Of a stretch of DNA of 64,000 nucleotides, positions 31,824 through 58,359 are shown piece by piece. Numbering within the stretch: position 1 is the stretch's first letter; every line of letters starts with the position of its first letter. Below the pieces are notes generated by a model. That model worked only from the letters and a program-made list of their open reading frames with translations, made no database searches and was not told where the DNA came from. Source of the stretch: a virus (taxonomy: Duplodnaviria; Caudoviricetes); IMG/VR virus record IMGVR_UViG_3300020492_000001, positions 1 through 64,000 of that record; one strand, given 5' to 3'. Made by a program: the position numbers and the translations under genes.

Positions 31824-31893
31824 AATAAATTGTTTTTCGCAAAAAAGCGATAGGTAACATCTCGTTCCTATCGCCTAAATTAATAAATTTTCT

Positions 31894-32079: not shown

Positions 32080-32081
32080 AC

Positions 32082-32300
32082 TTAATCGGTCGTAAAAACA
32101 TCAACTATTTCACAGTTTTTAAAGTGAATATTCTTATCTCCACCTAAATTTACAACTTGAGGTTTACACCCTCCTTTTGAACTATCCCATTCGATTATAC
32201 CTTTTTCTAAGGCGTCTTTAGATATTTCTTTCATTGTTTTTGAACCTGGTAACGACTTTACGTCATAACCTAAAATCCATCCTTTTTCTTTATTTTCCAT
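32082..32300 (-). CDS. hypothetical protein
   Basis: Co-oriented ORF in tight operon. Confidence 0.45.
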   Translation of the reverse strand: MENKEKGWILGYDVKSLPGSKTMKEISKDALEKGIIEWDSSKGGCKPQVVNLGGDKNIHFKNCEIVDVFTTD

Positions 32301-32315
32301 TTTTTTACGTTTTTT

Positions 32316-32774: not shown

Positions 32775-32795
32775 TTTTTTATTTTTTACGTTTTT

Positions 32796-32813
32796 TAATT
32801 CAATTTTGAGTTA
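32796..32813. promoter_or_regulatory. 18-bp palindrome copy
   Basis: TAATTCAA-TT-TTGAGTTA. Confidence 0.65.
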
Positions 32814-32817
32814 TTTT

Positions 32818-33630: not shown

Positions 33631-33632
33631 AT

Positions 33633-34421: not shown

Positions 34422-34543
34422 ATATTTATTTGGTTTTTAATTAAATCTGTAATAAATTAATAAATCTCCTTCTTCATTTATAAATAAGCTTCCTGTACTA
34501 TTCATAAAGTAATTTCTATGAGTACTATAACTATATGTTTGAT

Positions 34544-34885
34544 TTATAAATCTATCCATGTTCTTTCTCCGTTTTCATACCATAAGTAATCATCAATGTT
34601 ATTAAATACAATAATAGTAACCGTAACTCTCTGACTACATCTCACAACCCTCTTATCCATATCCTCAAGTAAGTGTTTACTTCTATCTAAGTACTGAGCG
34701 TTTAATCCTACTTGTATGCTAAAAGGAAGTTTATTACCACTCGGATCAAAAGCTAAATTATCGTCAGCATAAACAGAAGCATCAACCACAGGATCTCTTT
34801 CACTACCACTATACAGTTCCATATACTGTAAATCATATACACTATCGTATATCGCGTAAGGCTTTATCTTATTAATTGACACCAT
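34544..34885 (-). CDS. hypothetical protein
   Basis: Co-oriented ORF; palindrome upstream. Confidence 0.5.
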   Translation of the reverse strand: MVSINKIKPYAIYDSVYDLQYMELYSGSERDPVVDASVYADDNLAFDPSGNKLPFSIQVGLNAQYLDRSKHLLEDMDKRVVRCSQRVTVTIIVFNNIDDYLWYENGERTWIDL

Positions 34886-34921
34886 GCTAAATTAATTACT
34901 TTTTTATTAATTACCTATTTT

Positions 34922-35158
34922 TTAACTCAAAGTTGAGTTACTTTTTAAATACCATTCATAAATATCATCATTTATTCTCTCTATCGGGCCATAAGGAAAT
35001 GGACTCTTATTCCATAATATAAAGTCTATATCTTCTTCATCCGCCTTAGGGAAGTAATACAACACTAATTCATGTGGCATCATATCTTCTATTAATGTTA
35101 ACTTCTGCATATCTGTCTTTCTATCCACCATTTCGGCGGAACTCTTATCTTCTCCCAT
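34922..35158 (-). CDS. hypothetical protein
   Basis: Directly downstream of the promoter motif at 35165-35193. Confidence 0.5.
   Translation of the reverse strand: MGEDKSSAEMVDRKTDMQKLTLIEDMMPHELVLYYFPKADEEDIDFILWNKSPFPYGPIERINDDIYEWYLKSNSTLS
34923..34940. promoter_or_regulatory. 18-bp palindrome copy (perfect arms)
   Basis: TAACTCAA-AG-TTGAGTTA. Confidence 0.75.
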
Positions 35159-35164
35159 ATACCC

Positions 35165-35193
35165 TTATACTTAATTATCTTTTAAAAGGTTAC
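35165..35193 (-). promoter_or_regulatory. ECF-like promoter motif
   Basis: GTAACC-N16-AGTATAA. Confidence 0.65.
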
Positions 35194-35366
35194 AACTAAA
35201 TTAAACTATTTACTAAAATCTTTAATCACTACCGTCCACTTACTAAACCTCTTAACCTTATCCAAATCCCCTACAATCCACCTCTCATCCACCCAATCCC
35301 ACATCAACACCTTTCCTGCCCTCGCCTTCTTTACTTGTCTCAGAAACCCCTTACTTGCCGTTATTC

Positions 35367-35573
35367 TCATCTCCAACTTATTTTACATATAATATACAAA
35401 TCAAACACCTCTTCATCAGATAACTTATCCAAACTCCCCCAACTAGTCCTCCCATATTGGTCACTATAACTATGCCCAGCTTTCTTAACTAATCCATTAC
35501 TAAACTCAGAGTAATTAACCCCAATACCCATAACCAAGGCTTCCAAATCTTTTCTATCTAATTCTACTTGCAT
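35367..35573 (-). CDS. hypothetical protein
   Basis: Directly downstream of the promoter motif at 35590-35618. Confidence 0.55.
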   Translation of the reverse strand: MQVELDRKDLEALVMGIGVNYSEFSNGLVKKAGHSYSDQYGRTSWGSLDKLSDEEVFDLYIICKISWR

Positions 35574-35589
35574 ATCTCTTTTTTACTGC

Positions 35590-35618
35590 TTATACGCAAG
35601 TACTTTCCTAAAGGTTAC
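35590..35618 (-). promoter_or_regulatory. ECF-like promoter motif
   Basis: GTAACC-N16-CGTATAA. Confidence 0.7.
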
Positions 35619-35968
35619 GTTATACCTCAAATATTTTATTGATTATTTAAACAACGAATTTTTTTTATTTTTAAAATTATTTTTATGGTACTATATAGGT
35701 TGAATTTCCGAATAGAAAGTAAAGTCGGGGGTACGGGGGATAAGAGAAAGCCATAAGGATAAACAGATAATTGAAATTAGGATTTTTACAGGTTAGTAAA
35801 TTAGGATTTATATATAGTAAATTGGTTTATACTATGCTAGTAGTAAATGATATAAATTAGTAATGTGATATATATAAAATTATTATTTTAATATAGCCGC
35901 CGCCTTGCATAATCATTTTACACAGCCACCAACATACAACACACTAACCAAGGAACAACACACGTTTA

Positions 35969-35986
35969 TAACTCAAACTTGAGTCA
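35969..35986. promoter_or_regulatory. 18-bp palindrome copy
   Basis: TAACTCAA-AC-TTGAGTCA. Confidence 0.7.
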
Positions 35987-35993
35987 GAATAAC

Positions 35994-36440
35994 CGACAAC
36001 AAACGGATAATAAACGACAACAAACGGATAAATAGCCCTTACCGTTCATCAAGCTATACAACCGTTCATGTAATAGATCCTTTTTTAACATATTTATAGT
36101 AAGTTTGGCACACGATTAAACGACAACAAACGGCTATTTAAGCAATTACCGTTAATCCTGGATTATTACCACTTATGTAATAAATTAAATTTATGTGATT
36201 TTGGCACGATATTATTTAAAACTATCATTTTTGGGCTGAGTATAAAGGTTAAGTAAATAGGGTAAATTAAAACTAAATTTTAACACACTATTTTTACATA
36301 CTGTTTACCGCTCATCAAATAGGTAGTTCATATTGATAGTTTGGCACACTTTTAGATTTTTGTAAAGCCCCTATTTATAGGCTTTTTGAGGCATTCCATT
36401 TGTTGTCGATTAAGTTTAGTTATTTACTTACCGTTCATGT
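35994..36440 (+). repeat. cluster of short direct repeats in the long intergenic region
   Basis: CGACAACAAACGG at 35994, 36015, 36121; ACCGTTCAT at 36041, 36061, 36430; TTTGGCAC at about 36104, 36200, 36340. Confidence 0.75.
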
Positions 36441-36522
36441 AGTATTCACATAGTGAGTTTAAAGTATTTGTACATTTGAATAAGGAAACAAACTAATATA
36501 AACCCTTTAATAAATAGAAATT

Positions 36523-36942
36523 ATGAAAAACCCAACTAAAAAAGAACTAATGTATAATAACATTAAAAGACACGGCGAAAACCTAAATACTATTTTTAAC
36601 ACTGGTATTGAACCAATAGAACTATGTAAAAAACTGTTTAGAGTAGAAAGAAAAGCCCACCACGCAACAACATGTTTATTAAATACTAATACTTTACATT
36701 TATTAGAACTAAACAAATTAACAGGATACGACGTAAAACAAACAACCGAAGAAGAACAAGAGAAGTTTTTTAACGGTATTGAAAAGCAAATTGTTAAGAT
36801 ATTAGGCGACAAAGCGAAAGATTTAGTATATATCAATTTTGACGCTAGAGGATACGCTTTAAAGATTAAAAGCGAAAAAGCAATAGATTTAAACATTTAT
36901 AAAGATTTTGGCGGATACGGTATAATTGCACCCGAATTTTAA
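36523..36942 (+). CDS. early-region hypothetical protein
   Basis: First plus-strand ORF, preceded by TACATTTG at 36471. Confidence 0.65.
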   Translation: MKNPTKKELMYNNIKRHGENLNTIFNTGIEPIELCKKLFRVERKAHHATTCLLNTNTLHLLELNKLTGYDVKQTTEEEQEKFFNGIEKQIVKILGDKAKDLVYINFDARGYALKIKSEKAIDLNIYKDFGGYGIIAPEF

Positions 36943-37025
36943 ACACAAAATGCGTTTTGTCCACCGAGTGAATACCAATGTTTACAGGCTTTTAACATTT
37001 TTAACCCCCTTAAAAAACTAATCCC

Positions 37026-37274
37026 ATGAAAAACCCACAAATAACCTTAAAACTTCGCGACCTAATGAATAGAGAAAGACAAGCGAAAAACGACCTAATT
37101 GGTTGTATATTAGACAATTACAGAGAAACAGCGCCACATTTAGTTAATGGTGACACATTTAACCAGTTGTATGATATGGAAATGTACCAACTAAATGACA
37201 TTTTAAGCGACTTAATTAGTGAATTATACGCAAATATTGAACAACAACTAGAGAGATTTAAACAACGTAACTAA
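37026..37274 (+). CDS. early-region hypothetical protein
   Basis: Co-oriented ORF. Confidence 0.55.
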   Translation: MKNPQITLKLRDLMNRERQAKNDLIGCILDNYRETAPHLVNGDTFNQLYDMEMYQLNDILSDLISELYANIEQQLERFKQRN

Positions 37275-37412
37275 TTGATTTTTAAGTTGTTGGAAGTATA
37301 AGAATTATATAATACACATTACAATATGCTTATATACTATCCGACAACAAACGACTACCAACGTATTAAGGTTAAGTATTAAAGGTAAATTAACAATTTA
37401 AAATATAAAGAC

Positions 37413-37712
37413 ATGAAAAACGAAGTTAAGACAATAGATATTCAAGCTAAAGAGTGGTTTGATAAGTTAAACGGCAATAGTTACTTTTCGGGCTTAGTAA
37501 CGGTTAACTATGGAATGGCAGATGCTAAAGAATTTATAATGCCGTTTCAATATGGTTACGGTAGTAGTTACGAGAGTACAGGATTAAGTATAATAAGAAA
37601 GGCTTATAAATTAGATAGTGTGTATACTAGTGATTTAAGAGATAATGGTATTATAGTACGTTCTAATATAGAAAGAAAGTGTAAACAAAGAGAGTTAAAA
37701 GAGTATAAATAG
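37413..37712 (+). CDS. early-region hypothetical protein
   Basis: Co-oriented ORF. Confidence 0.6.
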   Translation: MKNEVKTIDIQAKEWFDKLNGNSYFSGLVTVNYGMADAKEFIMPFQYGYGSSYESTGLSIIRKAYKLDSVYTSDLRDNGIIVRSNIERKCKQRELKEYK

Positions 37713-37768
37713 ATACAGCCGCCGAAGTGTAAAAACGATTTTTAAATCCTAATTAATAAACGGAATTA

Positions 37769-37786
37769 TAACGCAAACTTGAGTTA
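37769..37786. promoter_or_regulatory. 18-bp palindrome copy
   Basis: TAACGCAA-AC-TTGAGTTA. Confidence 0.65.
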
Positions 37787-37809
37787 AAAACAATCTAAAA
37801 TTTAAGAAA

Positions 37810-38013
37810 ATGATAAGCTATTTAAACCATACAGAAACAGAAAGTACAAAAGCCCATACAGATATAATGTTAAATGGTGAATATATAGGATACTATATTA
37901 AAGATAATGAAGTTTTAACCGCATTCATTGAGATAGATAGAGAAATGTACGCAGGCGACTTCAAAAACACTAAACAATTAGAAATAACAATCAAAAACAT
38001 AATAAACCCCTAA
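37810..38013 (+). CDS. early-region hypothetical protein
   Basis: Co-oriented ORF. Confidence 0.5.
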   Translation: MISYLNHTETESTKAHTDIMLNGEYIGYYIKDNEVLTAFIEIDREMYAGDFKNTKQLEITIKNIINP

Positions 38014-38026
38014 AAACCCAAAAACC

Positions 38027-38236
38027 ATGAAAACAGTAATTTTAACACTAGCAAGCACAATTTTATTAAATAGCTGCACACTACACAAATTTAACGTTGA
38101 CGCCTGCCCGAAATGGACAAACAACATTAAAAACCCTGACAATTTAGAATTTATCGAAGAAGTAGCCTTTAATCTTAATAAAGCACCTCAACAAGTAACA
38201 CAGACAGAATTTAACGCTAGATATGCAAACAACTAA
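38027..38236 (+). CDS. small putative lipoprotein
   Basis: MKTVILTLASTILLNSC, signal peptide with lipobox-like LNSC. Confidence 0.5.
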   Translation: MKTVILTLASTILLNSCTLHKFNVDACPKWTNNIKNPDNLEFIEEVAFNLNKAPQQVTQTEFNARYANN

Positions 38237-38281
38237 TAAAAACCCCTAAACAATAAATAAACCCCTTAATAATTAGAAACC

Positions 38282-38527
38282 ATGGTAAGTAAAGCAACAA
38301 TAAAAGGATTAGATTTTAATACTATTGAAGAATATTTTGAATATATTTTAGATAGTAGGACCAACGGCCAACGCAAGCAAGCCCAGGAATTATATAAAAA
38401 ACTAAGTACAAGACAGAAAAACGATTTCGAAAATTGGTTTGACGTTTATACATACTATGATAGAGCAGATGAGGACCAAACAACAAGCGAAAGTATAAAT
38501 GATATGCTTGCATATTTAAAAGATTAA
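38282..38527 (+). CDS. early-region hypothetical protein
   Basis: Co-oriented ORF. Confidence 0.55.
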   Translation: MVSKATIKGLDFNTIEEYFEYILDSRTNGQRKQAQELYKKLSTRQKNDFENWFDVYTYYDRADEDQTTSESINDMLAYLKD

Positions 38528-38565
38528 AGGAACTATAATTTAAAACCCCTAAAAACATAAAAGCC

Positions 38566-38763
38566 ATGAAAACATTAAATAATAATACTATCCAAGAAAA
38601 TAAAAGAGCTTTTTTAGCAACTTGTAACGGCGCCACAGTGAAAGAAACAGACAAAACACTATATAAATTTTGTTATATGTTTGGCCCAAAGACATTAATT
38701 TTTTGGAAAGATACAGGCAGGATAAGTGTAAGAATTCGATTTAATGATAAAGGACTCAATTAA
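38566..38763 (+). CDS. early-region hypothetical protein
   Basis: Co-oriented ORF after a GGAACTATAAT motif. Confidence 0.5.
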   Translation: MKTLNNNTIQENKRAFLATCNGATVKETDKTLYKFCYMFGPKTLIFWKDTGRISVRIRFNDKGLN

Positions 38764-38779
38764 TTAAGGGAACTATAAT

Positions 38780-38808
38780 GTAACCTTTGTATAAATAAAT
38801 TAGTATAA
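38780..38808 (+). promoter_or_regulatory. ECF-like promoter motif
   Basis: GTAACC-N16-AGTATAA. Confidence 0.65.
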
Positions 38809-39170
38809 ATATTCTAAAACCTTAAAATTATGTTATTCGATACGCCAATAAGTAAAACAAAAGTAAGAAACGGGATTTTTGCATACAAATATGCAAACGG
38901 CTGCATTAATATTAATGGAGAAAAGTTTTTTGACTACTCAGTTAAAGACGCTATTAAAATTTGGAGAAGTAAACATTAAAACCTTAAAGCCATGAAATAC
39001 GAAATAAAACTATTGACACCGCGCGGACCAATAACAGAAATTTACACAGATACGCAAGACTTAACAGAGTTTAATAAGCAAATGATAGACAAACACGGAC
39101 AGTTTATAATGCTATCATCTAACCCAATTTAATAAAGGAACTATAATATAAACCATTAATACTAAAAACC

Positions 39171-39398
39171 ATGGCAAATTTAACCAAAGCAGAAAGACAT
39201 AACAGAATGTTAAATAATACATTCGATACATACCGCAAGCAACAAGCAGAGAAAAGAGATTTTTTACCAACCGTTAACGAGTATTCACACTTCCTGGATG
39301 AAGCAGTTAAGCGACTTAAAATAACAAGAGATGAAGCGAGGAACCAATACGGCAAGTTTACACACGGCCAATGGAAAGAACTGTTACAACTATTTTAA
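39171..39398 (+). CDS. early-region hypothetical protein
   Basis: Co-oriented ORF after a GGAACTATAAT motif. Confidence 0.55.
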   Translation: MANLTKAERHNRMLNNTFDTYRKQQAEKRDFLPTVNEYSHFLDEAVKRLKITRDEARNQYGKFTHGQWKELLQLF

Positions 39399-39439
39399 AA
39401 AGGAATTATAATCAATTTTAACCCTTAATACATACAACT

Positions 39440-39730
39440 ATGAAAAACTTAACTAAATCCGACCTGGTAAACATTGAAGCATTAAAAGCAGTATTAATAA
39501 TGCTGAGTAATGATATTAAAGACGTAAAGGCAAAAGTAGATATACCCTCAAACAAGGCTGAAAAGATATTCAGTTTATACAGACATAAAGCCCAATTAAT
39601 TAACAGCGCCGCCGACAAGTACCCTCATATTAATTGGCTAAATGTAGCATTAGGAGAGGAAACAAACTCAGAAAGAAGTTTAAAAGATACAGTAAGGATC
39701 AAAATAGAGACACGTTTAAACCTTAATTAA
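39440..39730 (+). CDS. early-region hypothetical protein
   Basis: Co-oriented ORF after a GGAATTATAAT motif. Confidence 0.5.
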   Translation: MKNLTKSDLVNIEALKAVLIMLSNDIKDVKAKVDIPSNKAEKIFSLYRHKAQLINSAADKYPHINWLNVALGEETNSERSLKDTVRIKIETRLNLN

Positions 39731-39770
39731 TAAACGGAAGTATAATATTAATCACTTAAAATTAGAAATT

Positions 39771-39995
39771 ATGGATATGTTCGCTCAATCAAAATTAAAT
39801 AAATGGTACAGAAAAGCCATTAAAGAGTTAAAAAGTGATATAAAACACTACTTAAACCTAAAAAATACGGATAACTTAAACAGAACTGTTTTGGCTGATG
39901 TTTTAAGACGTAAAAGAACTGAACTACTTAATGTGATGACAGACGCTCAAAACGACTTTAATACAGTTAATTGGATTGAATTATATAACAAGTAA
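39771..39995 (+). CDS. early-region hypothetical protein
   Basis: Co-oriented ORF after a GGAAGTATAAT motif. Confidence 0.5.
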   Translation: MDMFAQSKLNKWYRKAIKELKSDIKHYLNLKNTDNLNRTVLADVLRRKRTELLNVMTDAQNDFNTVNWIELYNK

Positions 39996-39998
39996 GCT

Positions 39999-40232
39999 AT
40001 GATACACACGATATTACCACAGAACGGAGTTATAATTTACATGAAGTACAGTAATGAAGTGATAACAATAGGCTTTAAAAAGGCTAAAGGAGTAATACAG
40101 GAGCGTAGTTATTTTTGTGACAAAGAAACCGCATACAGATTTTTTTACAGCAAAACCGCCGAACAGACTTTATCATTTTTTAGTAATAATATTAAAGGAA
40201 AATTGAAACTAATTGACGTAAATTTGCGTTAA
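39999..40232 (+). CDS. early-region hypothetical protein
   Basis: Co-oriented ORF. Confidence 0.45.
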   Translation: MIHTILPQNGVIIYMKYSNEVITIGFKKAKGVIQERSYFCDKETAYRFFYSKTAEQTLSFFSNNIKGKLKLIDVNLR

Positions 40233-40258
40233 ACAGTTAAATTAAAAAAGGAATTATA

Positions 40259-40837
40259 ATGGAAAATGAAGTTTGGATTGATATAAAAGGATATGAAGGG
40301 CAGTATCAAATATCTAATTTAGGTAGAGTTAAAAGCCTTGAAAGAGAAGTATTAAGGCCTTTAAATTCCTATACTATACCTACCAAGATATTAAAACATG
40401 GTAAAAACAAAAAAGGGTATGAATATGTTAATTTGTGTAAATACTCAAAAGTAAAACTAAACGTAATTCACAGATTAGTGGCAATACATTTTATTCCTAA
40501 TACAGAAAATAAAGCAACTGTTAATCACAAAAACGGCATAAAAATAGATAATAGAGTTGAAAATTTAGAGTGGAATACTGTATCTGAAAACACAAAACAC
40601 GCTCATAAAAATGGGCTATCCAATATAAGTGAACTAAATAGACAAATGTCAAGAGATAGACTTTATAAAAAAGTAATACATACCGAAACAAATAAAATAT
40701 TTAATTCAGTACAATCCGCCGCCGAGTTTTTTAAAATAAACAAACAGAATCTATCATCTAAATTAAACGGAAAAAAGAAAAACAATACTGGATTAATATT
40801 TTATGAAGAAAATAACTCAAACTTGAATTATAAATGA
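40259..40837 (+). CDS. NUMOD4-HNH homing endonuclease
   Basis: WIDIKGYEGQYQISNLGRVKS (NUMOD4), HRLVAIHF...VNHKNGIKIDNRVENLEW (HNH), C-terminal NUMOD1-like SVQSAAEF. Confidence 0.9.
   Translation: MENEVWIDIKGYEGQYQISNLGRVKSLEREVLRPLNSYTIPTKILKHGKNKKGYEYVNLCKYSKVKLNVIHRLVAIHFIPNTENKATVNHKNGIKIDNRVENLEWNTVSENTKHAHKNGLSNISELNRQMSRDRLYKKVIHTETNKIFNSVQSAAEFFKINKQNLSSKLNGKKKNNTGLIFYEENNSNLNYK
40813..40830. promoter_or_regulatory. 18-bp palindrome copy
   Basis: TAACTCAA-AC-TTGAATTA, at the 3' end of the HNH gene. Confidence 0.65.
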
Positions 40838-41027
40838 TAATTTATAAGTGGAAGTATAATGCAAACTAATAAGTTGATATTAAAATCAAATTCTACTTAT
40901 CAAATTTCAATCCTGCTGATACTTTATAACAAATCTAATACAATATACCATAAATACATTTAACCTCATTAAAATCAAATTAAATCAATATTAAGCCGCC
41001 GAGTGATATTTTACCATTAAGGGGTTA

Positions 41028-52182: not shown

Positions 52183-52428
52183 ATGAAACATAAACGCGAA
52201 CTTAAAATTTATAACGGAAGAGTAAAAGTATATGTAGATGGATACGTGATGTTTTCTTTTAATCAAATTGACTTCTTAGGTTATTATGCTTATAAGGACG
52301 ATACTTCACTCTACGGATTAGATATTTATTTATTAAGAGAAAAAGCGGGTGCGTCCACGATGGAAATTTACTTTAAAACTAAAGAGAATTGGCTCGAAAT
52401 GCTTAAATTACTTGATACTCATTTGTAA
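52183..52428 (+). CDS. hypothetical protein
   Basis: Co-oriented ORF. Confidence 0.55.
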   Translation: MKHKRELKIYNGRVKVYVDGYVMFSFNQIDFLGYYAYKDDTSLYGLDIYLLREKAGASTMEIYFKTKENWLEMLKLLDTHL

Positions 52429-52450
52429 TTTAATTATTTTGAAAATAAAC

Positions 52451-52478
52451 GTAACCTTTTAAATTTATATACGTTTAA
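52451..52478 (+). promoter_or_regulatory. ECF-like promoter motif at the head of the cassette array
   Basis: GTAACC-N15-CGTTTAA, 6 bp before hairpin 1. Confidence 0.7.
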
Positions 52479-52484
52479 ATAGAT

Positions 52485-52614
52485 AGATAACGTTGAGTAT
52501 ATATGTTCGGTTGCGATTAATAGCACGAACTTATCAATTTAAACAAAACTTAATAGAATGAACAAAATTTCAAATAAACACGAAACCGCAACTGACATAT
52601 ATACTGTGTTATGT
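52485..52614. repeat. attC-like hairpin 1
   Basis: AGATAAC-GTTG-AGTATATATGTTCGGTTGCG ... CGCAACTGACATATATACT-GT-GTTATGT. Confidence 0.85.
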
Positions 52615-53010
52615 GCTGCCTTTTGTGGTGCTGGTAAAACATTTATTTGTGATAAAACAGATATAAAGGCAGTTGAAGTTGAATATTGGAAGTATAAAGA
52701 AAAAGGACTGTTCAAAGAATATATTGAAGATGTTAAGAAGTATATCGGTAAGGTAGATTACATCTTTATTGCAACAGAGCCAGAAGGAATGAAATTGCTA
52801 CATGATGAAGGATTTGAAATAACTCTTGTTTACCCAAAAAATGAACTCCGAAACGAATATTTGGATAGATACATTGAGCGTGATAGTCCTTATGATTTTA
52901 TTGGAACATTTATGAAGCATTGGCATATATGGATTGATGAACTTAAAGAGCAAAAATATTGTAAGCATATTATTTTGGATTCAGGACAATACTTGCAGAA
53001 TGTTCTTTAA
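52558..53010 (+). CDS. cassette 1 ORF: P-loop kinase-like protein
   Basis: VLCAAFCGAGKT Walker A; starts inside hairpin 1. Confidence 0.65.
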   Translation: MNKISNKHETATDIYTVLCAAFCGAGKTFICDKTDIKAVEVEYWKYKEKGLFKEYIEDVKKYIGKVDYIFIATEPEGMKLLHDEGFEITLVYPKNELRNEYLDRYIERDSPYDFIGTFMKHWHIWIDELKEQKYCKHIILDSGQYLQNVL

Positions 53011-53016
53011 GGTTGC

Positions 53017-53109
53017 ACATAACGTTTTGCGGCTTGGCGAAGGCTGCCTAACGGATGCTCAATTTTCGCACAAATTTCAATGGCAGCTTTTGCCAAACCG
53101 CTGTTACCT
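53017..53109. repeat. attC-like hairpin 2
   Basis: ACATAAC-GTTTT-GCGGCTTGGCGAAGGCTGCC ... GGCAGCTTTTGCCAAACCGC-T-GTTACCT. Confidence 0.85.
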
Positions 53110-53418
53110 GCTGGGCGGTTTATCAGTAGGAACTTAAAAATAATATTCAAAATGTTGCCAAAAGAAAAAGCACAGGAACTTGTAAGCAAGTTTAAAGATT
53201 ACGTTCACGGATATGTTGGTAGCTCAATGCTTACCAACCATGAATACCCTGAACAAATTTTATCACAAGCAAAGAAAGTAGCAATTATTGTTGCAGATGA
53301 AATGCTCCATCAATACACTACTTTAAATGCTGATTTAATAAACGCATTGTATCGAACAGAAAAGGTTGTCTTTTGGCAACAGGTCAAAATAGAAATTGAT
53401 TATGTGTCGGAATTGTAG
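53080..53418 (+). CDS. cassette 2 ORF: MTPKEKA-family protein (alternative start at MLPKEKA)
   Basis: MLPKEKAQELVSKF...AIIVADEM...FWQQVKIEI. Confidence 0.6.
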   Translation: MAAFAKPLLPAGRFISRNLKIIFKMLPKEKAQELVSKFKDYVHGYVGSSMLTNHEYPEQILSQAKKVAIIVADEMLHQYTTLNADLINALYRTEKVVFWQQVKIEIDYVSEL

Positions 53419-53424
53419 CCTTGC

Positions 53425-53557
53425 AGGTAACGTTTCGCAGCTATATTTAGTTGCGATTTTGAAAAACAAAAGTTTAATTAATAAATAAAAGTAAATATGA
53501 AAAACAAAGTTGAAAATAAGAGCAATAATAAGCAATTGAATATACTAGCTGTTAGGC
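53425..53557. repeat. attC-like hairpin 3
   Basis: AGGTAAC-GTTTC-GCAGCTATATTTAGTTGC ... GCAATTGAATATACTAGC-T-GTTAGGC. Confidence 0.8.
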
Positions 53558-53940
53558 GTAGTTTTTTTAACTTCAAGTATAAATGGCCATTAAGAAAATA
53601 CTGGCTTAATTGGTTTAAAAGAGATGTTAAGAGATGGTATTATTCTAAAATACACGGTTTTAAAATGGGTGTATTTGATGGAACTATGATTCCAACTACT
53701 GGTAAAGGTAAATATGTATCTGTTTATTCTAAAGGTGAAATAATCCAAATTAAACATGAAAGCGGTTATGAACATTTAGAGTATGATGAAATTAGAATAA
53801 TACCATGTCAAGAAAATCACGGTGTAATGGTTGAAAGATTTAAAACAGGAAAAATGTGCGATAGAAACCACATGGATTTAAAGCAATTTAATAAAGGTAT
53901 AATTTTCGCTTCCAATGTTGAACAGTTGGCTGGTCGTTAA
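53497..53940 (+). CDS. cassette 3 ORF, hypothetical
   Basis: Starts inside hairpin 3, stops 6 nt before hairpin 4. Confidence 0.6.
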   Translation: MKNKVENKSNNKQLNILAVRRSFFNFKYKWPLRKYWLNWFKRDVKRWYYSKIHGFKMGVFDGTMIPTTGKGKYVSVYSKGEIIQIKHESGYEHLEYDEIRIIPCQENHGVMVERFKTGKMCDRNHMDLKQFNKGIIFASNVEQLAGR

Positions 53941-53946
53941 AATTAC

Positions 53947-54082
53947 GCCTAACGTTTTGCAACTTGCATTAGTGCCTTGCAAAAATACGAGTAGCTTCGG
54001 ATTAAAAAAGAACACAACAAATAAAAAACAAACATTAAATTAACAACCAAGCCAAAGGCATTGATGCAAATTGCTGTTATGC
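53947..54082. repeat. attC-like hairpin 4
   Basis: GCCTAAC-GTTTT-GCAACTTGCATTAGTGCCTT ... AAGGCATTGATGCAAATTGC-T-GTTATGC. Confidence 0.85.
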
Positions 54083-54107
54083 GCTGGCAAAAAAAAAATT
54101 AAAAATT

Positions 54108-54422
54108 ATGAGTACAATTATCGAAGACATTCAGTTTATGAAATCAATTTTGCCTGAACACTATGAGGTAAAAGAAAGTAAAAAATCAGGTTCAATTCAT
54201 TGTAAATCAAGTATTGGATTAAGAAAAACGCCATACAATAGTTTTGATAGTTTTAAACGACCAATTATTGTTGATGATGCGGAAGATGAAGAACAATGGT
54301 TTTATATCGTTGAAGCTATTAAAGCAAAGTTTGGCGAAAGGTTACAGGAAATTGACCATAACACTTGTTTTTGCCACGTCGATTTCACGATTTATCTGCG
54401 GTTTTCCGTTGCTTGCGCATAA
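54108..54422 (+). CDS. cassette 4 ORF, hypothetical
   Basis: Stop codon is the TAA of the next site's GCATAAC. Confidence 0.6.
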   Translation: MSTIIEDIQFMKSILPEHYEVKESKKSGSIHCKSSIGLRKTPYNSFDSFKRPIIVDDAEDEEQWFYIVEAIKAKFGERLQEIDHNTCFCHVDFTIYLRFSVACA

Positions 54423-54548
54423 CGGTTTGCAGCTAAACGAGGTGGCTGATTAATACCTCGAAACTTAATTAAAAGAACAAAATTATGAACACAGACAAAA
54501 GTTTATTAGAAGAACAAAGCAAGCCATCTTTTTTAGGTGCTGTTATGT
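54417..54548. repeat. attC-like hairpin 5
   Basis: GCATAAC-GGTTT-GCAGCTAAACGAGGTGGCT ... AGCCATCTTTTTTAGGTGC-T-GTTATGT. Confidence 0.85.
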
Positions 54549-54691
54549 GCCGTTTTTTATTCCAATACAGAAGTATGGATAAAGATTTAATGGTACATAT
54601 TGAAGCAAGTAGTTTAAATTATGCAATGGTGAAATTTGCAACTCACTACCATTTAATTGATGAAGTGTATGAGATTGCAAGGGTGTCCTAA
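54485..54691 (+). CDS. cassette 5 ORF, hypothetical
   Basis: Starts inside hairpin 5 (…SFLGAVMCRF is encoded by the right arm). Confidence 0.6.
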   Translation: MNTDKSLLEEQSKPSFLGAVMCRFLFQYRSMDKDLMVHIEASSLNYAMVKFATHYHLIDEVYEIARVS

Positions 54692-54697
54692 AATGGC

Positions 54698-54847
54698 ACA
54701 TAACGGAAAATAATAAACGTATGTGTTGGTGTGTGGTTAAAGTGTTCCTCTGGCTAATGGACAAGTACCATAACCGTAAGTGCCTAAAACTTACCATACC
54801 ACGCTACGGGCGGAACACGCCAACATTACGTTTATTTATTGTTAGCA
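54698..54847. repeat. attC-like hairpin 6
   Basis: ACATAAC-GGAA-AATAATAAACGTATGTGTTGG ... CCAACATTACGTTTATTTATT-GTTAGCA. Confidence 0.75.
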
Positions 54848-54862
54848 AATCGTTTTAATGTT

Positions 54863-54941
54863 TGCTAACGGCATCAAGCTAAAAGCTGACCGCCTAATAA
54901 GCGGTTAGTATATGGCGGTTTGATTTTAGGTTGTGTTATGT
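54863..54941. repeat. attC-like hairpin 7
   Basis: TGCTAAC-GGCAT-CAAGCTAAAAGCTGACCGCC ... GGCGGTTTGATTTTAGGTTG-T-GTTATGT. Confidence 0.8.
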
Positions 54942-55003
54942 TGGTGCGATGGCAAGTGTGTGAGGCAGTTTTATTTTATTAATTTTTAAAAAAGCGGAGG
55001 AAA

Positions 55004-55216
55004 ATGGAAAACTTATACTTTAGAAAAAAACTTATATGGGCTGAAATTGAGCGATTAAAACACGAACTTGAAAAGAATCAAGAGTTTATTAACTTATTTC
55101 AAAAACAAAACAATGATTTGCTAAAACAGATTGAAAAGCAATTTAAAGAAATAGAAATTGTTGGAGAGCAATTACTAAAAATAGAAACAGAACAATTAAT
55201 AAAACATGATTTATGA
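55004..55216 (+). CDS. cassette 7 ORF a, coiled-coil hypothetical
   Basis: Heptad pattern. Confidence 0.55.
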   Translation: MENLYFRKKLIWAEIERLKHELEKNQEFINLFQKQNNDLLKQIEKQFKEIEIVGEQLLKIETEQLIKHDL

Positions 55217-55482
55217 CAACAGAAAAACCACTTAGAAAAACAGGCAGTTATATAGTAATTGCCAAACGTTGGAGCAGCGAACAATCACATAATTACATTG
55301 TAGATTTATGCTCAGGAATTGATTCAGCTAAAGAAATTGCAGAAAATGAAATGCGAGAGCGTGGCGGTAAATATGGGATACAGATAATTGCTTTTAGAGA
55401 AGATAACAACGAGCAAGAAATTGTTTTTGAAATTGAAAGCCCATATAAGAATAAGGTAAATATACCTACTGATAACGCTTAG
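55213..55482 (+). CDS. cassette 7 ORF b, hypothetical
   Basis: ATGA overlap with ORF a. Confidence 0.55.
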   Translation: MTTEKPLRKTGSYIVIAKRWSSEQSHNYIVDLCSGIDSAKEIAENEMRERGGKYGIQIIAFREDNNEQEIVFEIESPYKNKVNIPTDNA

Positions 55483-55519
55483 GTGCGTAGGCTTTTAAAA
55501 ATTAATAAAATAAAATTGA

Positions 55520-55606
55520 ACATAACGGTTTGCAGCTAATAGAAGGCTGTAATTACACAAAAATATATGAGCTGTTAACTCAGCTTTTTATTAGGTGCTG
55601 TTAGTA
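55520..55606. repeat. attC-like hairpin 8
   Basis: ACATAAC-GGTTT-GCAGCTAATAGAAGGCTG ... CAGCTTTTTATTAGGTGC-T-GTTAGTA. Confidence 0.85.
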
Positions 55607-55655
55607 CCAGTAGCCAAATTAAAATTTAAAAACAATAACAATTAAAAACTAAAAT

Positions 55656-55934
55656 ATGAAAAACAACAAAGAACAATCGTACCAATACGCTGCAATTATA
55701 CAAGGCGCAATAGCAGAAATGTTAAATGAAGATAGTGATAGCGATTATAGAATATCGTTAAGCGATTTTGATGATGAGGATAAAGCAACTGCATTTTTGC
55801 ACGCATTAGCTAATATAGTGCCTTGTAATATCTATAAAAAATTAACTCAAGATGATACTGACATTTTAGGTTTTAATCATATCGCTAATAGATTAGTATA
55901 TCAATTTACAAAGCAGGACGAAGCCGAAGATTAA
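55656..55934 (+). CDS. cassette 8 ORF, hypothetical
   Basis: Fills the interval between hairpins 8 and 9. Confidence 0.6.
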   Translation: MKNNKEQSYQYAAIIQGAIAEMLNEDSDSDYRISLSDFDDEDKATAFLHALANIVPCNIYKKLTQDDTDILGFNHIANRLVYQFTKQDEAED

Positions 55935-55951
55935 ACATCAAAGGCTATTAG

Positions 55952-56082
55952 TACTAACGGTTGGTGCTTTATTTAGTGCCGACTTAACAGATAAAATTTA
56001 ATTGAAACACAAATGAAAAATAAAAAGACAAAAGTAAAATCGAAGCCGAAAACTAAGGCATTGAATAAAGCACTTGTTAGCA
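55952..56082. repeat. attC-like hairpin 9
   Basis: TACTAAC-GGTTG-GTGCTTTATTTAGTGCC ... GGCATTGAATAAAGCAC-TT-GTTAGCA. Confidence 0.85.
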
Positions 56083-56270
56083 GTAGTGCCTATGTGCGTT
56101 ACCGCTACTCAGGTAAATCTTCTTCAATATTTTGGGATATAGTAAATTCATTACCAAAAGATGCAGACAGACAAGAGATGTATGCTTTAGGATGCGTTTT
56201 GCAAAATGTTGAAGAAGATGTGTTGAGAACACTAAGGAATATTAACAGCAAGTATGTGCGTGGCAAATAG
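56013..56270 (+). CDS. cassette 9 ORF, hypothetical
   Basis: Starts inside hairpin 9. Confidence 0.6.
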   Translation: MKNKKTKVKSKPKTKALNKALVSSSAYVRYRYSGKSSSIFWDIVNSLPKDADRQEMYALGCVLQNVEEDVLRTLRNINSKYVRGK

Positions 56271-56277
56271 GCATTAC

Positions 56278-56411
56278 TGCTAACGTTCTGGCGGTTGGCG
56301 TTCGTTGCCGACTTTGGAACACTAAACTTTCACTTTTAAAATAAATTTGATATGGAACACAAAACTTCAATAAACCACGAAAACGGCAATGACGCCAACC
56401 GCTTGTTACCA
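56278..56411. repeat. attC-like hairpin 10
   Basis: TGCTAAC-GTTCTG-GCGGTTGGCGTTCGTTGCCG ... CGGCAATGACGCCAACCGC-TT-GTTACCA. Confidence 0.85.
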
Positions 56412-56579
56412 GCAGTTAGTTGGTATAAATCATTATCGCTCAACCAAAAGATGGCGCTCAAAGAAGTATCAGCATTAATTTGTGGAATGAAATGGGAAGA
56501 TTTCAATATTCTATTCAGTCCACGAGAAAGACTTGAGATATTGCACAACAAATTAATATTGGAAGGTTTCCTTGTCTAA
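56352..56579 (+). CDS. cassette 10 ORF, hypothetical
   Basis: Starts inside hairpin 10. Confidence 0.6.
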   Translation: MEHKTSINHENGNDANRLLPAVSWYKSLSLNQKMALKEVSALICGMKWEDFNILFSPRERLEILHNKLILEGFLV

Positions 56580-56583
56580 TTGC

Positions 56584-56681
56584 TGGTAACGTTTTGCAGC
56601 TAATAGAAGTGGCTGCTTGTAAGAACTTCTGAATTATAAACAAATGCTTGTAGCAGCCATTTTTGTTAGGTGCTGTTATAA
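56584..56681. repeat. attC-like hairpin 11
   Basis: TGGTAAC-GTTTT-GCAGCTAATAGAAGTGGCTGCT ... AGCAGCCATTTTTGTTAGGTGC-T-GTTATAA. Confidence 0.85.
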
Positions 56682-56700
56682 GCTGTAAAAATTACGACTT

Positions 56701-56907
56701 ATGAAAACGTATTTATCATTTTACGGAGATTGTTATTACCCAAGCGGTGGTATGGGTGATTTTATTGGAGATTACGACACCAAAGAAGAAGCGATACAAG
56801 CTATTGAAGAAGCTCACAAAAAGAACCGCCCTGATGATTTAGAATGGGAGTGGGCTTGGGCTAATGTTTGGAGTGCACATGACCGAATCGAAGTGTACAC
56901 TAAGTAA
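56701..56907 (+). CDS. cassette 11 ORF, hypothetical
   Basis: MKTYLSFYGDCYYPSGGMGDF; fills the interval. Confidence 0.6.
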   Translation: MKTYLSFYGDCYYPSGGMGDFIGDYDTKEEAIQAIEEAHKKNRPDDLEWEWAWANVWSAHDRIEVYTK

Positions 56908-56917
56908 TTTTTATTGC

Positions 56918-56981
56918 TTATAACGGATGAAGCCTTACCCAGCGAAGGTGTCGACCGAGTTGGGTAAGGGTTGGGTTATAA
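56918..56981. repeat. attC-like hairpin 12 (shortest, 64 bp)
   Basis: TTATAAC-GGATG-AAGCCTTACCCAGC ... GTTGGGTAAGGGTT-GG-GTTATAA. Confidence 0.85.
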
Positions 56982-57032
56982 GCTGACGGTTACTAATGTT
57001 ACTATGAAAAACAATTTAAAAAAAATAACGAT

Positions 57033-57218
57033 ATGATTGAAATAGAAGAATTATTTGGTGGAAATGATGCCGAAGAACACAATGTTTTATACACTATTAT
57101 TAAAAATAGAGGATATAAATATTTTGAAGAAACACCCAAAACAAGTATGACTTGCGGATTAATTAAAGATTTACACGAACTAAATTACGAGATTGTAAAA
57201 AAAAACGTTTCAAAGTAG
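57033..57218 (+). CDS. cassette 12 ORF, hypothetical
   Basis: Fills the interval between hairpins 12 and 13. Confidence 0.55.
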   Translation: MIEIEELFGGNDAEEHNVLYTIIKNRGYKYFEETPKTSMTCGLIKDLHELNYEIVKKNVSK

Positions 57219-57229
57219 CTACCGTTTGC

Positions 57230-57353
57230 TTATAACGGTTCGCAGATAAACGCAGTTTTATGAAACAGAAATTAGATATAGAAAAAATTAGAGAGTTGGA
57301 AACCATAGCTAAAGAATTAGATGCTGAAAAATTGCGTTTATCTGCTGTTAGCA
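57230..57353. repeat. attC-like hairpin 13
   Basis: TTATAAC-GGTTC-GCAGATAAACGCAGTTTT ... AAAATTGCGTTTATCTGC-T-GTTAGCA. Confidence 0.85.
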
Positions 57354-57457
57354 AATCGGTTTGCGACCACTCTTGGATGAACACAGGATTATCAGTACAA
57401 GGCAAAAGTTTGATGGTATGCACCAAATGTAGGGAAACCAAGCAAACTGTTTGCTAA
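57260..57457 (+). CDS. cassette 13 ORF: coiled coil plus CDH..C..C zinc-ribbon-like tail
   Basis: VCDHSW...MVCTKC; starts inside hairpin 13; stop is the TAA of the terminal TGCTAAC. Confidence 0.55.
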   Translation: MKQKLDIEKIRELETIAKELDAEKLRLSAVSKSVCDHSWMNTGLSVQGKSLMVCTKCRETKQTVC

Positions 57458-57480
57458 CTATTATATGTAAACTACCCTTT
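57452..57480. other. candidate attI-like primary recombination site
   Basis: Lone TGCTAAC box not followed by G or a hairpin arm; TGCTAAC-TATTATAT-GTAAACT; 67 bp upstream of the recombinase start. Confidence 0.55.
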
Positions 57481-57525
57481 AAACTAACAGCAAAATCAAT
57501 ACTCTTTAATTAAAAAATCGAAAAT

Positions 57526-58359
57526 ATGAATTTAGAAAAGTGGATAAATAGATATAAAACTGATTGTGCTTTAAAGTATAATAGTGATGCAACCAAAGAA
57601 AATTACACTTCTGGAGTTAAATCTTTTCTTATAAAATTCGATAAATATTCTGAGCCTAAAGAAATACCGACTCAGGAAATTAAAGAGTATTTATTGACTT
57701 TTAAAACGATAAATACACGAAAGCATAACCTTTGCTCTATTAAATCTTTCTATAAATTAACTGTAGGTATGCCAAGCAAGATTGATAAGATTCCTTATCC
57801 TAAGTCTGATAAGAAACTACCTATCGTTCTTTCTGTAAACGAAATTCAAAGAATGTTTAATGTCTGCCAAAATAAGAAGCATAAAGCAATTTTAGCTTTA
57901 CTGTACTCTTGTGGATTACGTGTATCGGAACTTATAAATTTGAAATGGAAAGATATTGATAGAAGTAGAATGGTAATTAATATAATCCAAGCTAAGGGAA
58001 ATAAGGATAGGCAAGTCCCATTATCTCAAGATTTGATTAATGTATTAGAAAGTTACTGGAATGAGTACAAGTCCGCCGAGTATGTTTTTAATGGACAAAA
58101 ATCACTGCAATACACAGATAGAAGTGTAGGAGAAGTAATTAAACAGTTGGCAGATAAAGCAGGAATATGTAATAAAAGGGTTTACACACACCTTATGCGT
58201 CATTGCAGCTTTACGCACATGGTTGAGAACGGAACTGATATTTCGCTTATCCAAAGACTCGCTGGACATTCTAGTGTAAAAACGACTAATATCTACCTCC
58301 ATATCAGCCATAATCACATAAGTAAAATCCAAAGTCCACTAAGTAATATTAAATTATAA
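57526..58359 (+). CDS. tyrosine recombinase, IntI-related/XerD-like (277 aa)
   Basis: LPIVLS..E, LYSCGLRVSE (R), AKGNKDR (K), HLMRH (HxxR), LAGH, TNIY (Y), C-terminal IQSPL. Confidence 0.92.
   Translation: MNLEKWINRYKTDCALKYNSDATKENYTSGVKSFLIKFDKYSEPKEIPTQEIKEYLLTFKTINTRKHNLCSIKSFYKLTVGMPSKIDKIPYPKSDKKLPIVLSVNEIQRMFNVCQNKKHKAILALLYSCGLRVSELINLKWKDIDRSRMVINIIQAKGNKDRQVPLSQDLINVLESYWNEYKSAEYVFNGQKSLQYTDRSVGEVIKQLADKAGICNKRVYTHLMRHCSFTHMVENGTDISLIQRLAGHSSVKTTNIYLHISHNHISKIQSPLSNIKL

Follow-up and report, generated by a model that had tools for sequence, protein, structure and literature searches.

The hairpins between positions 52485 and 57353 of the analysed window (a 64,000 nt stretch of a viral record) are, with a probability of roughly 70%, folded plus-strand recombination sites of a phage-borne, integron-like cassette system that is served by the adjacent Xer-like recombinase. 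As judged from sequence, the apparent mismatches within these hairpins are fixed features of the freshwater-phage sites, namely one G·T wobble per binding arm, a bulge of four bases on one side and a disarmed second AAC.

Layout and detection of the hairpin sites

All 13 window hairpins were found at the coordinates given by an earlier note on this DNA, and they share the form TAAC-G, a bulge of 3-5 nt, a stem of 18-27 bp, a loop, the 3′ arm, 0-2 nt and GTTA. The triplets AAC and GTT flank an imperfect hairpin in 13/13 window sites and in 66 unique relatives. The spacer following AAC begins with G and is 4-6 nt long in 13/13 window sites, versus 0-2 nt for the spacer preceding GTT, exactly as the earlier note had described. 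In the following list, and throughout the text, hairpin positions are numbered in nt from GTT.

Hairpin 1, 52488..52611, plus strand: TAAC..GTTA; G·T at 15; a T bulges from the 5′ arm; the loop contains the ATG of the next ORF
Hairpin 2, 53020..53106, plus strand: C·A at 6; G·T at 12 and 15; uncultured phage LR756502 has a copy with 87% identity
Hairpin 3, 53428..53554, plus strand: T·G at 13; G·T at 15
Hairpin 4, 53950..54079, plus strand: C·A at 6; T·G at 13; G·T at 15; Flavobacterium phage snusmum6-1 has a copy with 88.7% identity
Hairpin 5, 54420..54545, plus strand: G·G at 5; G·T at 12 and 15; travels with its downstream ORF in L004/L006
Hairpin 6, 54701..54844, plus strand: G·T at 15; bulged T; followed by a nearly empty cassette
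Hairpin 7, 54866..54938, plus strand: G·G at 5; G·T at 15
Hairpin 8, 55523..55603, plus strand: G·G at 5; G·T at 12 and 15
Hairpin 9, 55955..56079, plus strand: T·G at 13; G·T at 15; its cassette adjoins the recombinase directly in L004/L006/L007
Hairpin 10, 56281..56408, plus strand: G·T at 15; bulged T
Hairpin 11, 56587..56678, plus strand: G·G at 5; T·G at 10; G·T at 12 and 15
Hairpin 12, 56921..56978, plus strand: short loop; G·G at 5; G·T at 15
Hairpin 13, 57233..57350, plus strand: G·T at 15 as the sole non-Watson-Crick pair

A site detector that weighs G·T and A·C equally called 137 sites in the window genome and 33 loci, versus 22 in shuffled sequence. The extra bases were located on the 5′ side in about 115 of the detected sites and on the 3′ side in 5, and it is this count that provides orientation evidence free of a length filter; a net 5′-side excess of 2-4 nt was present in 51/51 family representatives, for which the same range had been the selection criterion. 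MAFFT alignment of whole hairpins served the class of approximately 125 nt only, and the short and long classes were handled with custom anchored alignments. An Rfam search with the hairpins returned no family match, only a chance miRNA match (E 0.42), and no chromosomal arrays were found in the five short MAG contigs searched.

Location of wobbles and mismatches

The differences between the hairpin arms had been claimed to be biased towards G-T pairs on the plus strand, and a strand-symmetric gapped alignment of the window hairpins indeed yielded 23 G·T or T·G versus 5 A·C or C·A transition mismatches on that strand. This bias arises from fixed positions and not from scattered drift. A G·T pair exactly 15 nt ahead of GTT is shared by 13/13 window sites, by 43/47 cluster representatives and by 57/62 unique sites, and in the count of the covariation tool this pair is G·U in 27/32 rows and G-C in none. 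A second hot position is 12, with G·T in 12/51 representatives. Away from the hot positions, wobbles and A·C+C·A mismatches numbered 17 versus 5 within positions 2-18, and 0 versus 8 beyond position 19, where the A·C-type mismatches are probably unpaired stem ends.

Two other origins of the bias were considered and rejected. A diffuse wobble bias over the stem was dismissed, as the ratio of G·T+T·G to A·C+C·A in the family set was 14 versus 15 once positions 5, 6, 12 and 15 were removed. A mutational or compositional bias was dismissed because composition accounts for a G·T:A·C ratio no higher than about 1.08 and because the effect is tied to specific positions.

The recurrent G-G mismatch of the earlier note was recovered in hairpins 5, 7, 8, 11 and 12, at the pair 5 nt from GTT, and its C-A mismatch in hairpins 2 and 4, at 6 nt from GTT. 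Both fall within a degenerate second "AAC" box in the L arm: where this arm reads WAAC its A is mispaired in 14/14 cases, and where position 6 is not A a Watson-Crick pair is formed in 33/33. A lone bulged T was present in only 4/51 representatives.

Folding strength and covariation

Folding energies were compared for both strands with an identical tetraloop on either strand, following a check proposed by the earlier note. The strands proved unequal: the plus-strand stem was more stable than the minus-strand stem in 10/10 window sites scored and in 43/51 family representatives, with a mean advantage of 1.5 kcal/mol using DNA parameters and 4.5 kcal/mol using RNA parameters (Wilcoxon p ~5e-7). 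The idea that selection acts on the folding of one strand is thereby upheld as far as the more stable plus stems are concerned; the wobble excess does not follow from it, consisting of the fixed positions 15 and 12 and a T·G pair between cassette ends rather than of drift filtered by folding.

The suggested covariation analysis gave a score of 0.541 versus 0.152 in shuffles, with 0/500 shuffles reaching 0.541 and slid controls scoring at most 0.185. Variation on both sides was observed in 18/20 stem pairs, and an arm matched its own partner with 87% Watson-Crick pairs, versus 30% for the partners of other elements. In these alignments the hairpin structure is maintained by covariation.

Between 44 and 68 kb the plus strand has a positive GC skew; this fits plus-strand exposure and is confounded with gene orientation, and the skew was therefore left out as evidence.

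The favoured strand is also the sense strand, the stability gap is bigger with RNA parameters (4.5 versus 1.5 kcal/mol), and in 6/13 window hairpins the start codon of the next ORF lies inside the loop. These observations would fit hairpins that are mainly RNA structures of the early polycistronic transcript, involved in processing, stabilisation or translational control of the ORFs starting in the loops, with the G·U pairs reflecting selection on RNA folding; RNase III processing sites are known from the transcripts of phage T7. Such an explanation is regarded as unlikely, since the wobble occupies one set position and is not dispersed as in RNA helices, since no Rfam family matches, and since two findings presented below point elsewhere: the cassettes are reordered with breakpoints in TAAC, and the same T·G pair and 12 nt of complementarity connect cassette ends that are hundreds of bases apart and adjacent only in a circle. 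An RNA role could coexist with recombination, yet it leaves the cassette-end wobble, the reordering and the fixed wobble position unexplained.

Cassette shuffling and breakpoints

Four cassettes of the window recur in the near-identical phages L004 and L006, three of them 100% identical and one 97.7% identical, and stand there in different order. All junctions inspected (10/10) break within T-A-A-C(-G) at the left end of the hairpin and none at GTTA, the exact bond lying below this resolution. When hairpins of at least 95% identity were compared in differing contexts, the left flank was changed and the right flank kept in 11 pairs (4 independent hairpins), and the reverse was observed in 0. 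Moreover, a contig of one lake metagenome is devoid of exactly the unit that extends from the TAAC of hairpin 6 to the TAAC of hairpin 7. The ends of all-against-all HSPs were located at AAC in 25 cases and at GTT in 0, in a noisy tally with many ends in backbone DNA and with three window hairpins absent from its site list. Metagenome contigs also diverge just past the GTTA of hairpins 2, 5 and 11; as depth in those bins is raised 3-5-fold, this divergence was read as other cassettes with multi-copy hairpin types, and it may also reflect a second crossover point.

In the folded bottom strand, the 5′-AAC at the 5′ end is cut between A and C by the integron integrase IntI (PMC5027507). Based on this geometry and on the breakpoints in TAAC(G) at the left hairpin end, the plus strand was assigned as the recombined strand, and the equation of the plus strand with the bottom strand of integrons in the earlier note is thus borne out by reordered identical cassettes. 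The wobble data alone name no strand, since a fixed G·T on the plus strand equals a fixed A·C on the minus strand, so that the assignment rests on breakpoint mapping together with the polarity rule of tyrosine recombinases.

The recombined strand could conversely be the minus strand, with the conserved A·C and an AAAC-type bulge as unpaired recognition features analogous to extrahelical bases; the fixed non-Watson-Crick position is readable from either strand, and the minus strand has a T·G wobble where the plus strand has C·A at position 6. This is judged quite improbable, because cleavage at the minus-strand 5′-AAC would put the breakpoints at the GTTA (right) end, for which recent rearrangements gave 0 versus 11 pairs, because the minus stems are less stable in 43/51 representatives, and because each exchange would split the ORFs that start in the loops.

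Arm anatomy and cassette ends

In the R arm, the end of the preceding cassette, 5′-MTTGCnnMTAA|C, pairs with GTTAKnnGCAGT downstream of the hairpin, and the L arm is a second copy of the same motif located in the 3′ arm of the stem; the base profiles of R arm and L arm match at each position. The 3′ segment reads MTTGCnnMWAN-CnnnTG-TTAKnnGCAGT with the arms 6 nt apart, like a Xer core site, and the 5′ segment with the crossover AAC carries 4 extra G/T-rich bases in its central region. In both arms a T at -10 is placed opposite a G, and the T·G wobble arises only in the folded plus strand. The L-arm equivalent of AAC is degenerate or mispaired (C·A or G·G). The ends of consecutive cassettes paired with at least 5/6 Watson-Crick pairs in 45/55 cases, the pairing extending to 12 nt, and in this cassette-end pairing T·G at -10 from the AAC cytosine, the equivalent of position 15, was present in 37/45 cassettes. 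By sequence comparison, each folded site mimics a two-arm core site.

Viewed as a duplex, the 3′ arm and the right flank form a regular 11-6-11 site, and multi-copy hairpin types that are at least 95% alike across cassettes could permit homologous exchange. The elements might accordingly be ordinary duplex inverted repeats that are recombined as double-stranded core sites or by homologous recombination, with mismatches due to neutral decay or deamination bias. We consider this very unlikely: the breakpoints lie outside the 11-6-11 site, at the left end, where the duplex arms are 10 bp apart and the central regions non-identical, and they fall within 4-5 shared bases, which are too few for homologous recombination. 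Furthermore, neutral decay cannot keep one wobble in >90% of the sites while its neighbours covary, and composition predicts a ratio of 1.08.

Recombinase and attI-like junction

Two further features are located downstream of the last hairpin.

attI-like junction TAAC|TATTATATGTAAACTACC, 57455..57480, plus strand: the backbone resumes exactly at TAAC in relatives with a different last cassette
Xer-like tyrosine recombinase of 277 aa, 57526..58359, plus strand: without the IntI-specific insertion

The catalytic motifs R/K/HxxR/H/Y of the recombinase are present. The IntI insertion was scored as missing because a stretch of 72 residues in VchIntIA corresponds to 29 in the phage protein. The TIGR02249 model gave a split match under its cut-off, and the XerA model scored 198 bits at a cut-off of 220. 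By motif and model comparison, the recombinase is Xer-like.

Proposed mechanism

Binding, the place of cleavage within T-A-A-C-G and single-strand exchange are inferred by analogy with known recombinases. The folded plus strand would be bound by two recombinase monomers, of which only the one at the R arm would cleave, at 5′-TAA|C; one strand would then be exchanged and the junction resolved through replication, as described for integrons and for CTX phage. The enzyme would rely on the wobbles and the bulge to recognise the plus strand in folded form and to discriminate against the minus strand and duplex DNA, and the L-arm mismatch would block a second cleavage.

More tentatively, the T·G at -10 of both arms may be a fold-specific identity element, read as T on one segment and as G on the other, that replaces the extrahelical-base pocket of IntI for the choice of strand and substrate; the mispaired second AAC would enforce one-strand cleavage, and the whole would amount to a second, independently evolved single-strand cassette recombination, run by phages. 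An extra role of the hairpins at the RNA level is possible, as they also occur in mRNA.

Comparison with known systems

Like the attC sites that are recombined by IntI in class 1 integrons and the Vibrio superintegron, the phage sites are imperfect hairpins capped by AAC and GTT, with the crossover in AAC at the 5′ end of one folded strand, and each cassette carries its site at one fixed end. The two ends of a cassette are complementary in both systems (R″ to the remainder of R′), the structure is kept by covariation and not by sequence, with a degenerate L box, and the array is located by a divergent attI-like site and a tyrosine recombinase, as read on the recombined strand.

In an attC site, by definition, two or three bases (G, T) of the L″ arm are extrahelical; they are spaced 6 bp apart and face the cleaved AAC (PMC5027507). 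The phage sites have none of these on the far arm, and their extra bases adjoin AAC on the same arm. The central spacer of attC is unpaired with 5-6 nt per arm, whereas that of the phage sites has 4-6 nt (5′) versus 0-2 nt (3′). Unlike attC, the phage sites display a bulge of 3-5 nt in the AAC arm, T·G at -10 of both arms and C·A or G·G at the L-arm equivalent of AAC, and their arms carry the sequence motif MTTGCnnMTAAC. The IntI-specific insertion, which holds a flipped-out T of attC, is missing from the Xer-like phage recombinase. The prediction of the earlier note that the recognition code differs from that of attC therefore agrees with the far arm lacking extrahelical bases, the AAC-arm bulge, the fixed wobbles and mismatches, and the recombinase without IntI insertion. 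In addition, and unlike in integrons, the phage cargo genes have the sense orientation on the recombined strand and frequently begin within the loop, and the host of the system is the phage.

CALINs, i.e. attC clusters without integrase, have been reported in phages, e.g. Polaribacter phage P12002L (PMC9892861). In that study, two sites of P12002L, found with attC models, were reported and treated as canonical attC, and no recombinase, wobble or bulge code was described, so that the recognition code presented here is absent from it; IntI1 gave no recombinants with P12002L_attC1 in an attC x attI1 assay (PMC9892861). A literature search for integron-like systems of phages that have a Xer-like enzyme found nothing beyond PMC9892861. 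P12002L_attC1 has the same TAAC-G...GTTA layout and is by sequence an apparent short member of the family, for which the detector made no call. At least 9 sites of the hairpin family are located on the early-gene strand of P12002L, with G·T at position 15 in 7/7 scorable sites.

Recognition of attC is the textbook case of a recombinase that reads DNA shape over sequence, and it is thought to need flipped-out bases held by an IntI-specific domain. In phages, a different recombinase lineage appears to gain the same outcome with other marks: each arm has a wobble, the bulge is confined to one side, and the second cleavage box is disarmed. Being nucleotide-defined and kept in >90% of the sites, these marks make strand choice and single-cleavage control testable with few oligonucleotides. 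The difference from the attC code explains why standard attC models recover only scraps of the arrays in Bacteroidota phages, and the phage code can serve as a rule in searches for the shuffling system by which freshwater and marine phages exchange methyltransferases and other accessory genes.

In the CTX phage, the attP(+) hairpin mimics a two-arm core site with an imperfect centre, one pair of strands is exchanged and replication completes the process; the host XerCD and one site integrate the whole single-stranded genome at dif. Among tyrosine recombinases, it is the Xer enzymes, besides IntI, that are known to act on single strands in folded form (PMC5027507; for the CTX phage, PMC3442271), and attP(+) of CTX-phi is folded single-stranded phage DNA recombined by XerC/XerD (PMC3442271). 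By analogy, the present system would be alike in combining a Xer-family enzyme with a hairpin that imitates a two-arm core site. The Xer/dif core site itself consists of two inverted arms of about 11 nt that are 6-8 nt apart, an arrangement that is met on the 3′ segment of the phage sites, whose arm profiles match. In contrast to CTX, one phage-encoded recombinase is combined here with many-site arrays that bound single gene cassettes in a double-stranded DNA phage.

Layout and folding of the hairpin array

The virus record containing the window is 76 kb in size; in the window, the structural genes are located on the minus strand and the early and replication genes, including a ResIII helicase and DnaB, on the plus strand. 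Thirteen elements of a single design, all on the plus strand, lie between small plus-strand ORFs, each consisting of TAAC, a G, a bulge of 3-5 nt, an imperfect stem of 18-27 bp, a loop of 13-80 nt, the 3′ arm, 0-2 nt and GTTA. The features of the region are:

52488-57350, plus strand: hairpins 1-13
54845-54865: mini-cassette of approximately 20 nt (GTTAGCAAATCGTTTTAATGTTTGCTAAC) between hairpins 6 and 7
57455: TAAC of the attI-like site (TAAC followed by TATTATATG)
57526-58359, plus strand: tyrosine recombinase gene (277 aa), downstream of the hairpin array

The mini-cassette matches the last cassette (57347-57458) at both ends and therefore looks like an internally deleted copy of it. The ORF of the last cassette (57260-57457) uses the TAA of the terminal TAAC (57455-57457) as stop codon, so that crossover site and stop codon overlap. 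For 6/13 window hairpins the downstream ORF begins within the loop. In a class of hairpins of about 125 nt, the loops can be aligned among distant phages (alignment A1, loop columns 40-150; A-rich, containing AAATTAAAAACAAA) and frequently hold the ATG of the following ORF, which suggests that sites of this class contain a common expression signal. The hairpins may have an additional role in mRNA.

For the analysis of mispairs, the arms were aligned with equal scores for G·T and A·C, so that neither strand was favored. Position n denotes the stem pair n nt from GTT. The bias towards plus-strand wobbles described in the earlier note was recovered, the transition-type mispairs of the 13 hairpins comprising 23 G·T/T·G versus 5 A·C/C·A. 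The G-G mismatch it had listed for hairpins 5, 7, 8, 11 and 12 is present at position 5 and the C-A mismatch of hairpins 2 and 4 at position 6. The asymmetric bulge is equally evident: the spacer after AAC has 4-6 nt and begins with G in 13/13 hairpins, versus 0-2 nt on the opposite side. One T is bulged in the 5′ arm of hairpins 1, 6 and 10, as in 4/51 sequence clusters of the family. Folding energies were calculated for both strands with DNA parameters and an identical tetraloop; for the 10 window sites found by the symmetric detector, the plus-strand stem was more stable in 10/10, by 2.9 kcal/mol on average. When whole elements were folded singly, the energy was lower on the plus strand in 12/13.

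Conservation across the family

Relatives of the recombinase (57-100% identity) were found on 31 viral contigs. In most of these contigs, hairpins built like those of the window were detected; without exception they share the strand of the recombinase gene, and the majority lie upstream of it. The symmetric detector yielded 137 sites versus 22 in shuffled sequence; about 115 of the detected sites carry their extra bases on the 5′ side, whereas 5 carry them on the 3′ side. The family set comprised 66 unique sites in 51 sequence clusters, and the plus-strand stem was more stable in 43/51 of these. In a 32-sequence alignment the covariation score was 0.541 versus 0.152 in shuffles (0/500), with a maximum of 0.185 in slid controls, and 18/20 stem pairs vary on both sides; by this alignment, the stem is maintained through covariation across the family.

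The mispairs occupy particular places. Base composition predicts a G·T:A·C ratio of 1.08. At position 15, G·T was counted in 43/47 clusters, in 57/62 unique sites and in all 13 window sites, and G-C or A-T hardly ever occurs there. G·T is also seen at position 12, in 12/51 clusters; position 6 is C·A in 15/51, position 5 G·G in 5/51 and position 7 T-A in 46/51. The remaining positions pooled gave 14 wobbles versus 15 A·C pairs, or 17 versus 5 when restricted to positions 2-18. Selection on the folding of a single strand had been proposed to explain the bias; the excess is real, but since it is concentrated at fixed positions it reflects a conserved design and not drift filtered by folding.

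Two-arm architecture of the folded site

The bases 3′ of each GTT are complementary to those 5′ of the next AAC, which is the footprint of circularisable units. Among 45 unique cassettes this pairing of cassette ends extends 12 nt, and at distance 8, 37/45 have a G·T pair and just 1 has a Watson-Crick pair. The wobble T is at -10 counted from the C of AAC, and stem position 15 has the same distance to the C conserved at position 5. Position for position, the paired cassette ends (R arm) and the inner stem (L arm) have matching base profiles (5′-M T T G C n n M W A A C); the T at -10 faces a G in 38/45 and 38/44 cases for the two arms. Given the matching profiles and the same wobble, each folded site has two like arms, the R arm being formed by the cassette ends and the L arm by the inner stem. 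The arms are 6 nt apart in the 3′ segment, the spacing of Xer-type core sites, while in the 5′ segment the central region is longer by 4 bases, which are G/T-rich.

Both the G·G and the C·A mispair map to the part of the L arm that corresponds to AAC. Where the 3′ strand reads WAAC at the L arm (14 clusters), the opposite strand is always GCTW and the A is mispaired (14/14), while a position 6 other than A forms a Watson-Crick pair in 33/33; the sites thus avoid a second AAC/GTT with complete pairing. At the adjacent pair, G·G is a less usual variant, frequent in the window phage (5/13) and rarer elsewhere (5/51 clusters).

Assignment of the recombining strand

The wobbles alone cannot name the strand, because every conserved G·T reads as a conserved A·C on the complementary strand. 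Rearrangements were therefore compared. Three related viral loci (L004, L006 and L007) share a backbone 99.8% identical to the window and carry cassettes in the order 11, 10, 5, 9, three of them at 100% identity and cassette 10 at 97.7%. At 10/10 inspected junctions similarity stops inside T-A-A-C(-G) at the left end of the hairpin, and a rearranged hairpin always moves with its downstream ORF. The backbone restarts at TAAC 57455, followed by TATTATATGTAAAC, which is conserved in relatives with recombinases 82-100% identical. Hairpins with at least 95% identity but different surroundings retain the right flank and differ in the left one in 11 pairs (4 independent hairpins), versus 0 pairs with the reverse pattern. 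In contigs from other lake metagenomes, the unit from the TAAC of hairpin 6 to that of hairpin 7 is precisely lost, and numerous points of divergence coincide with TAAC.

Tyrosine recombinases generally cleave at the 5′ edge of the central region. IntI cuts between A and C of 5′-AAC at the 5′ end of the folded bottom strand (PMC5027507). With this polarity, the left-end crossover identifies the plus strand as the folded, cleaved strand, so the earlier equation of the plus strand with the integron bottom strand holds. The assignment agrees with the folding energies and with the loop-starting ORFs, which stay intact only with plus-strand polarity. Some metagenome contigs diverge right after the GTTA of hairpins 2, 5 and 11, types whose contig depth in lake metagenomes is 3-5x that of their neighbours; this divergence is provisionally read as other cassettes sharing the hairpin type, not as a second crossover point.

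The recombinase and a proposed mechanism

The XerA model gave the best match to the recombinase, although its 198 bits fall short of the cut-off of 220; XerD and XerC ranked next, and the integron-integrase model matched in two pieces only. Comparison with VchIntIA (PDB 2a3v) places 29 residues of the recombinase opposite 72 of IntI, so the IntI-specific insertion is missing. In the IntI-attC complex this insertion holds a flipped-out base. IntI makes specific contacts with the extrahelical bases of attC (PMC5027507), and the missing insertion would suit sites without such bases. We propose that a dimer of the recombinase binds the folded plus strand and cleaves solely between TAA and C of TAAC; the T·G pairs and the bulge would serve it to recognise the folded strand, and the product would be resolved by replication.

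Occurrence in other phages and metagenomes

An array of the same family is present in Flavobacterium phage snusmum6-1:

L001 (MN812234), 1142-4562: at least 6 hairpin-bounded cassettes

Two of these cassettes are DNA methyltransferases. No Phage_integrase domain was found anywhere in snusmum6-1; its array is an orphan, perhaps served in trans. Unrelated phages, among them an uncultured one of 642 kb, contain copies of hairpin types 2 (53020-53106), 5 (54420-54545) and 11 (56587-56678) at 87-89% identity. Hairpin types exist in multiple copies and are common to different cassettes. Freshwater and lake metagenomes from many studies (2016-2024) share 0.6-1.0 of the words of window region 52300-57700; array variants coexist within one sample, X8 having forms with and without unit 6.

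Comparison with integrons and related systems

Clusters of attC sites without integrase have been reported in phages, including Polaribacter phage P12002L, whose published 'CALIN' has two sites only (PMC9892861). More family sites were found there:

L039 (NC_028924), 31118-40948, minus strand: at least 9 sites, co-oriented with early genes; no recombinase annotated

Position 15 is G·T in 7/7 scorable sites. The published P12002L_attC1, not called by the detector, has the TAAC-G...GTTA layout of the window sites and looks like a short member of the same family. It was the sole site that IntI1 failed to recombine (PMC9892861), a failure in line with a different recognition code. No literature description was found of the wobble, bulge and mismatch features, nor of the link to the recombinase.

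The array works like an integron, and hairpin types 2, 5 and 11 are multi-copy like the Vibrio VCRs. However, three defining features of attC/IntI are absent, namely the extrahelical bases, the symmetric unpaired spacer and the IntI insertion, which bears out the different recognition code suggested earlier. In a further difference from attC/IntI, the phage cargo genes are sense on the recombined strand. The nearest mechanistic precedent is CTX phage integration, in which a Xer-family enzyme acts on a folded strand (PMC3442271).
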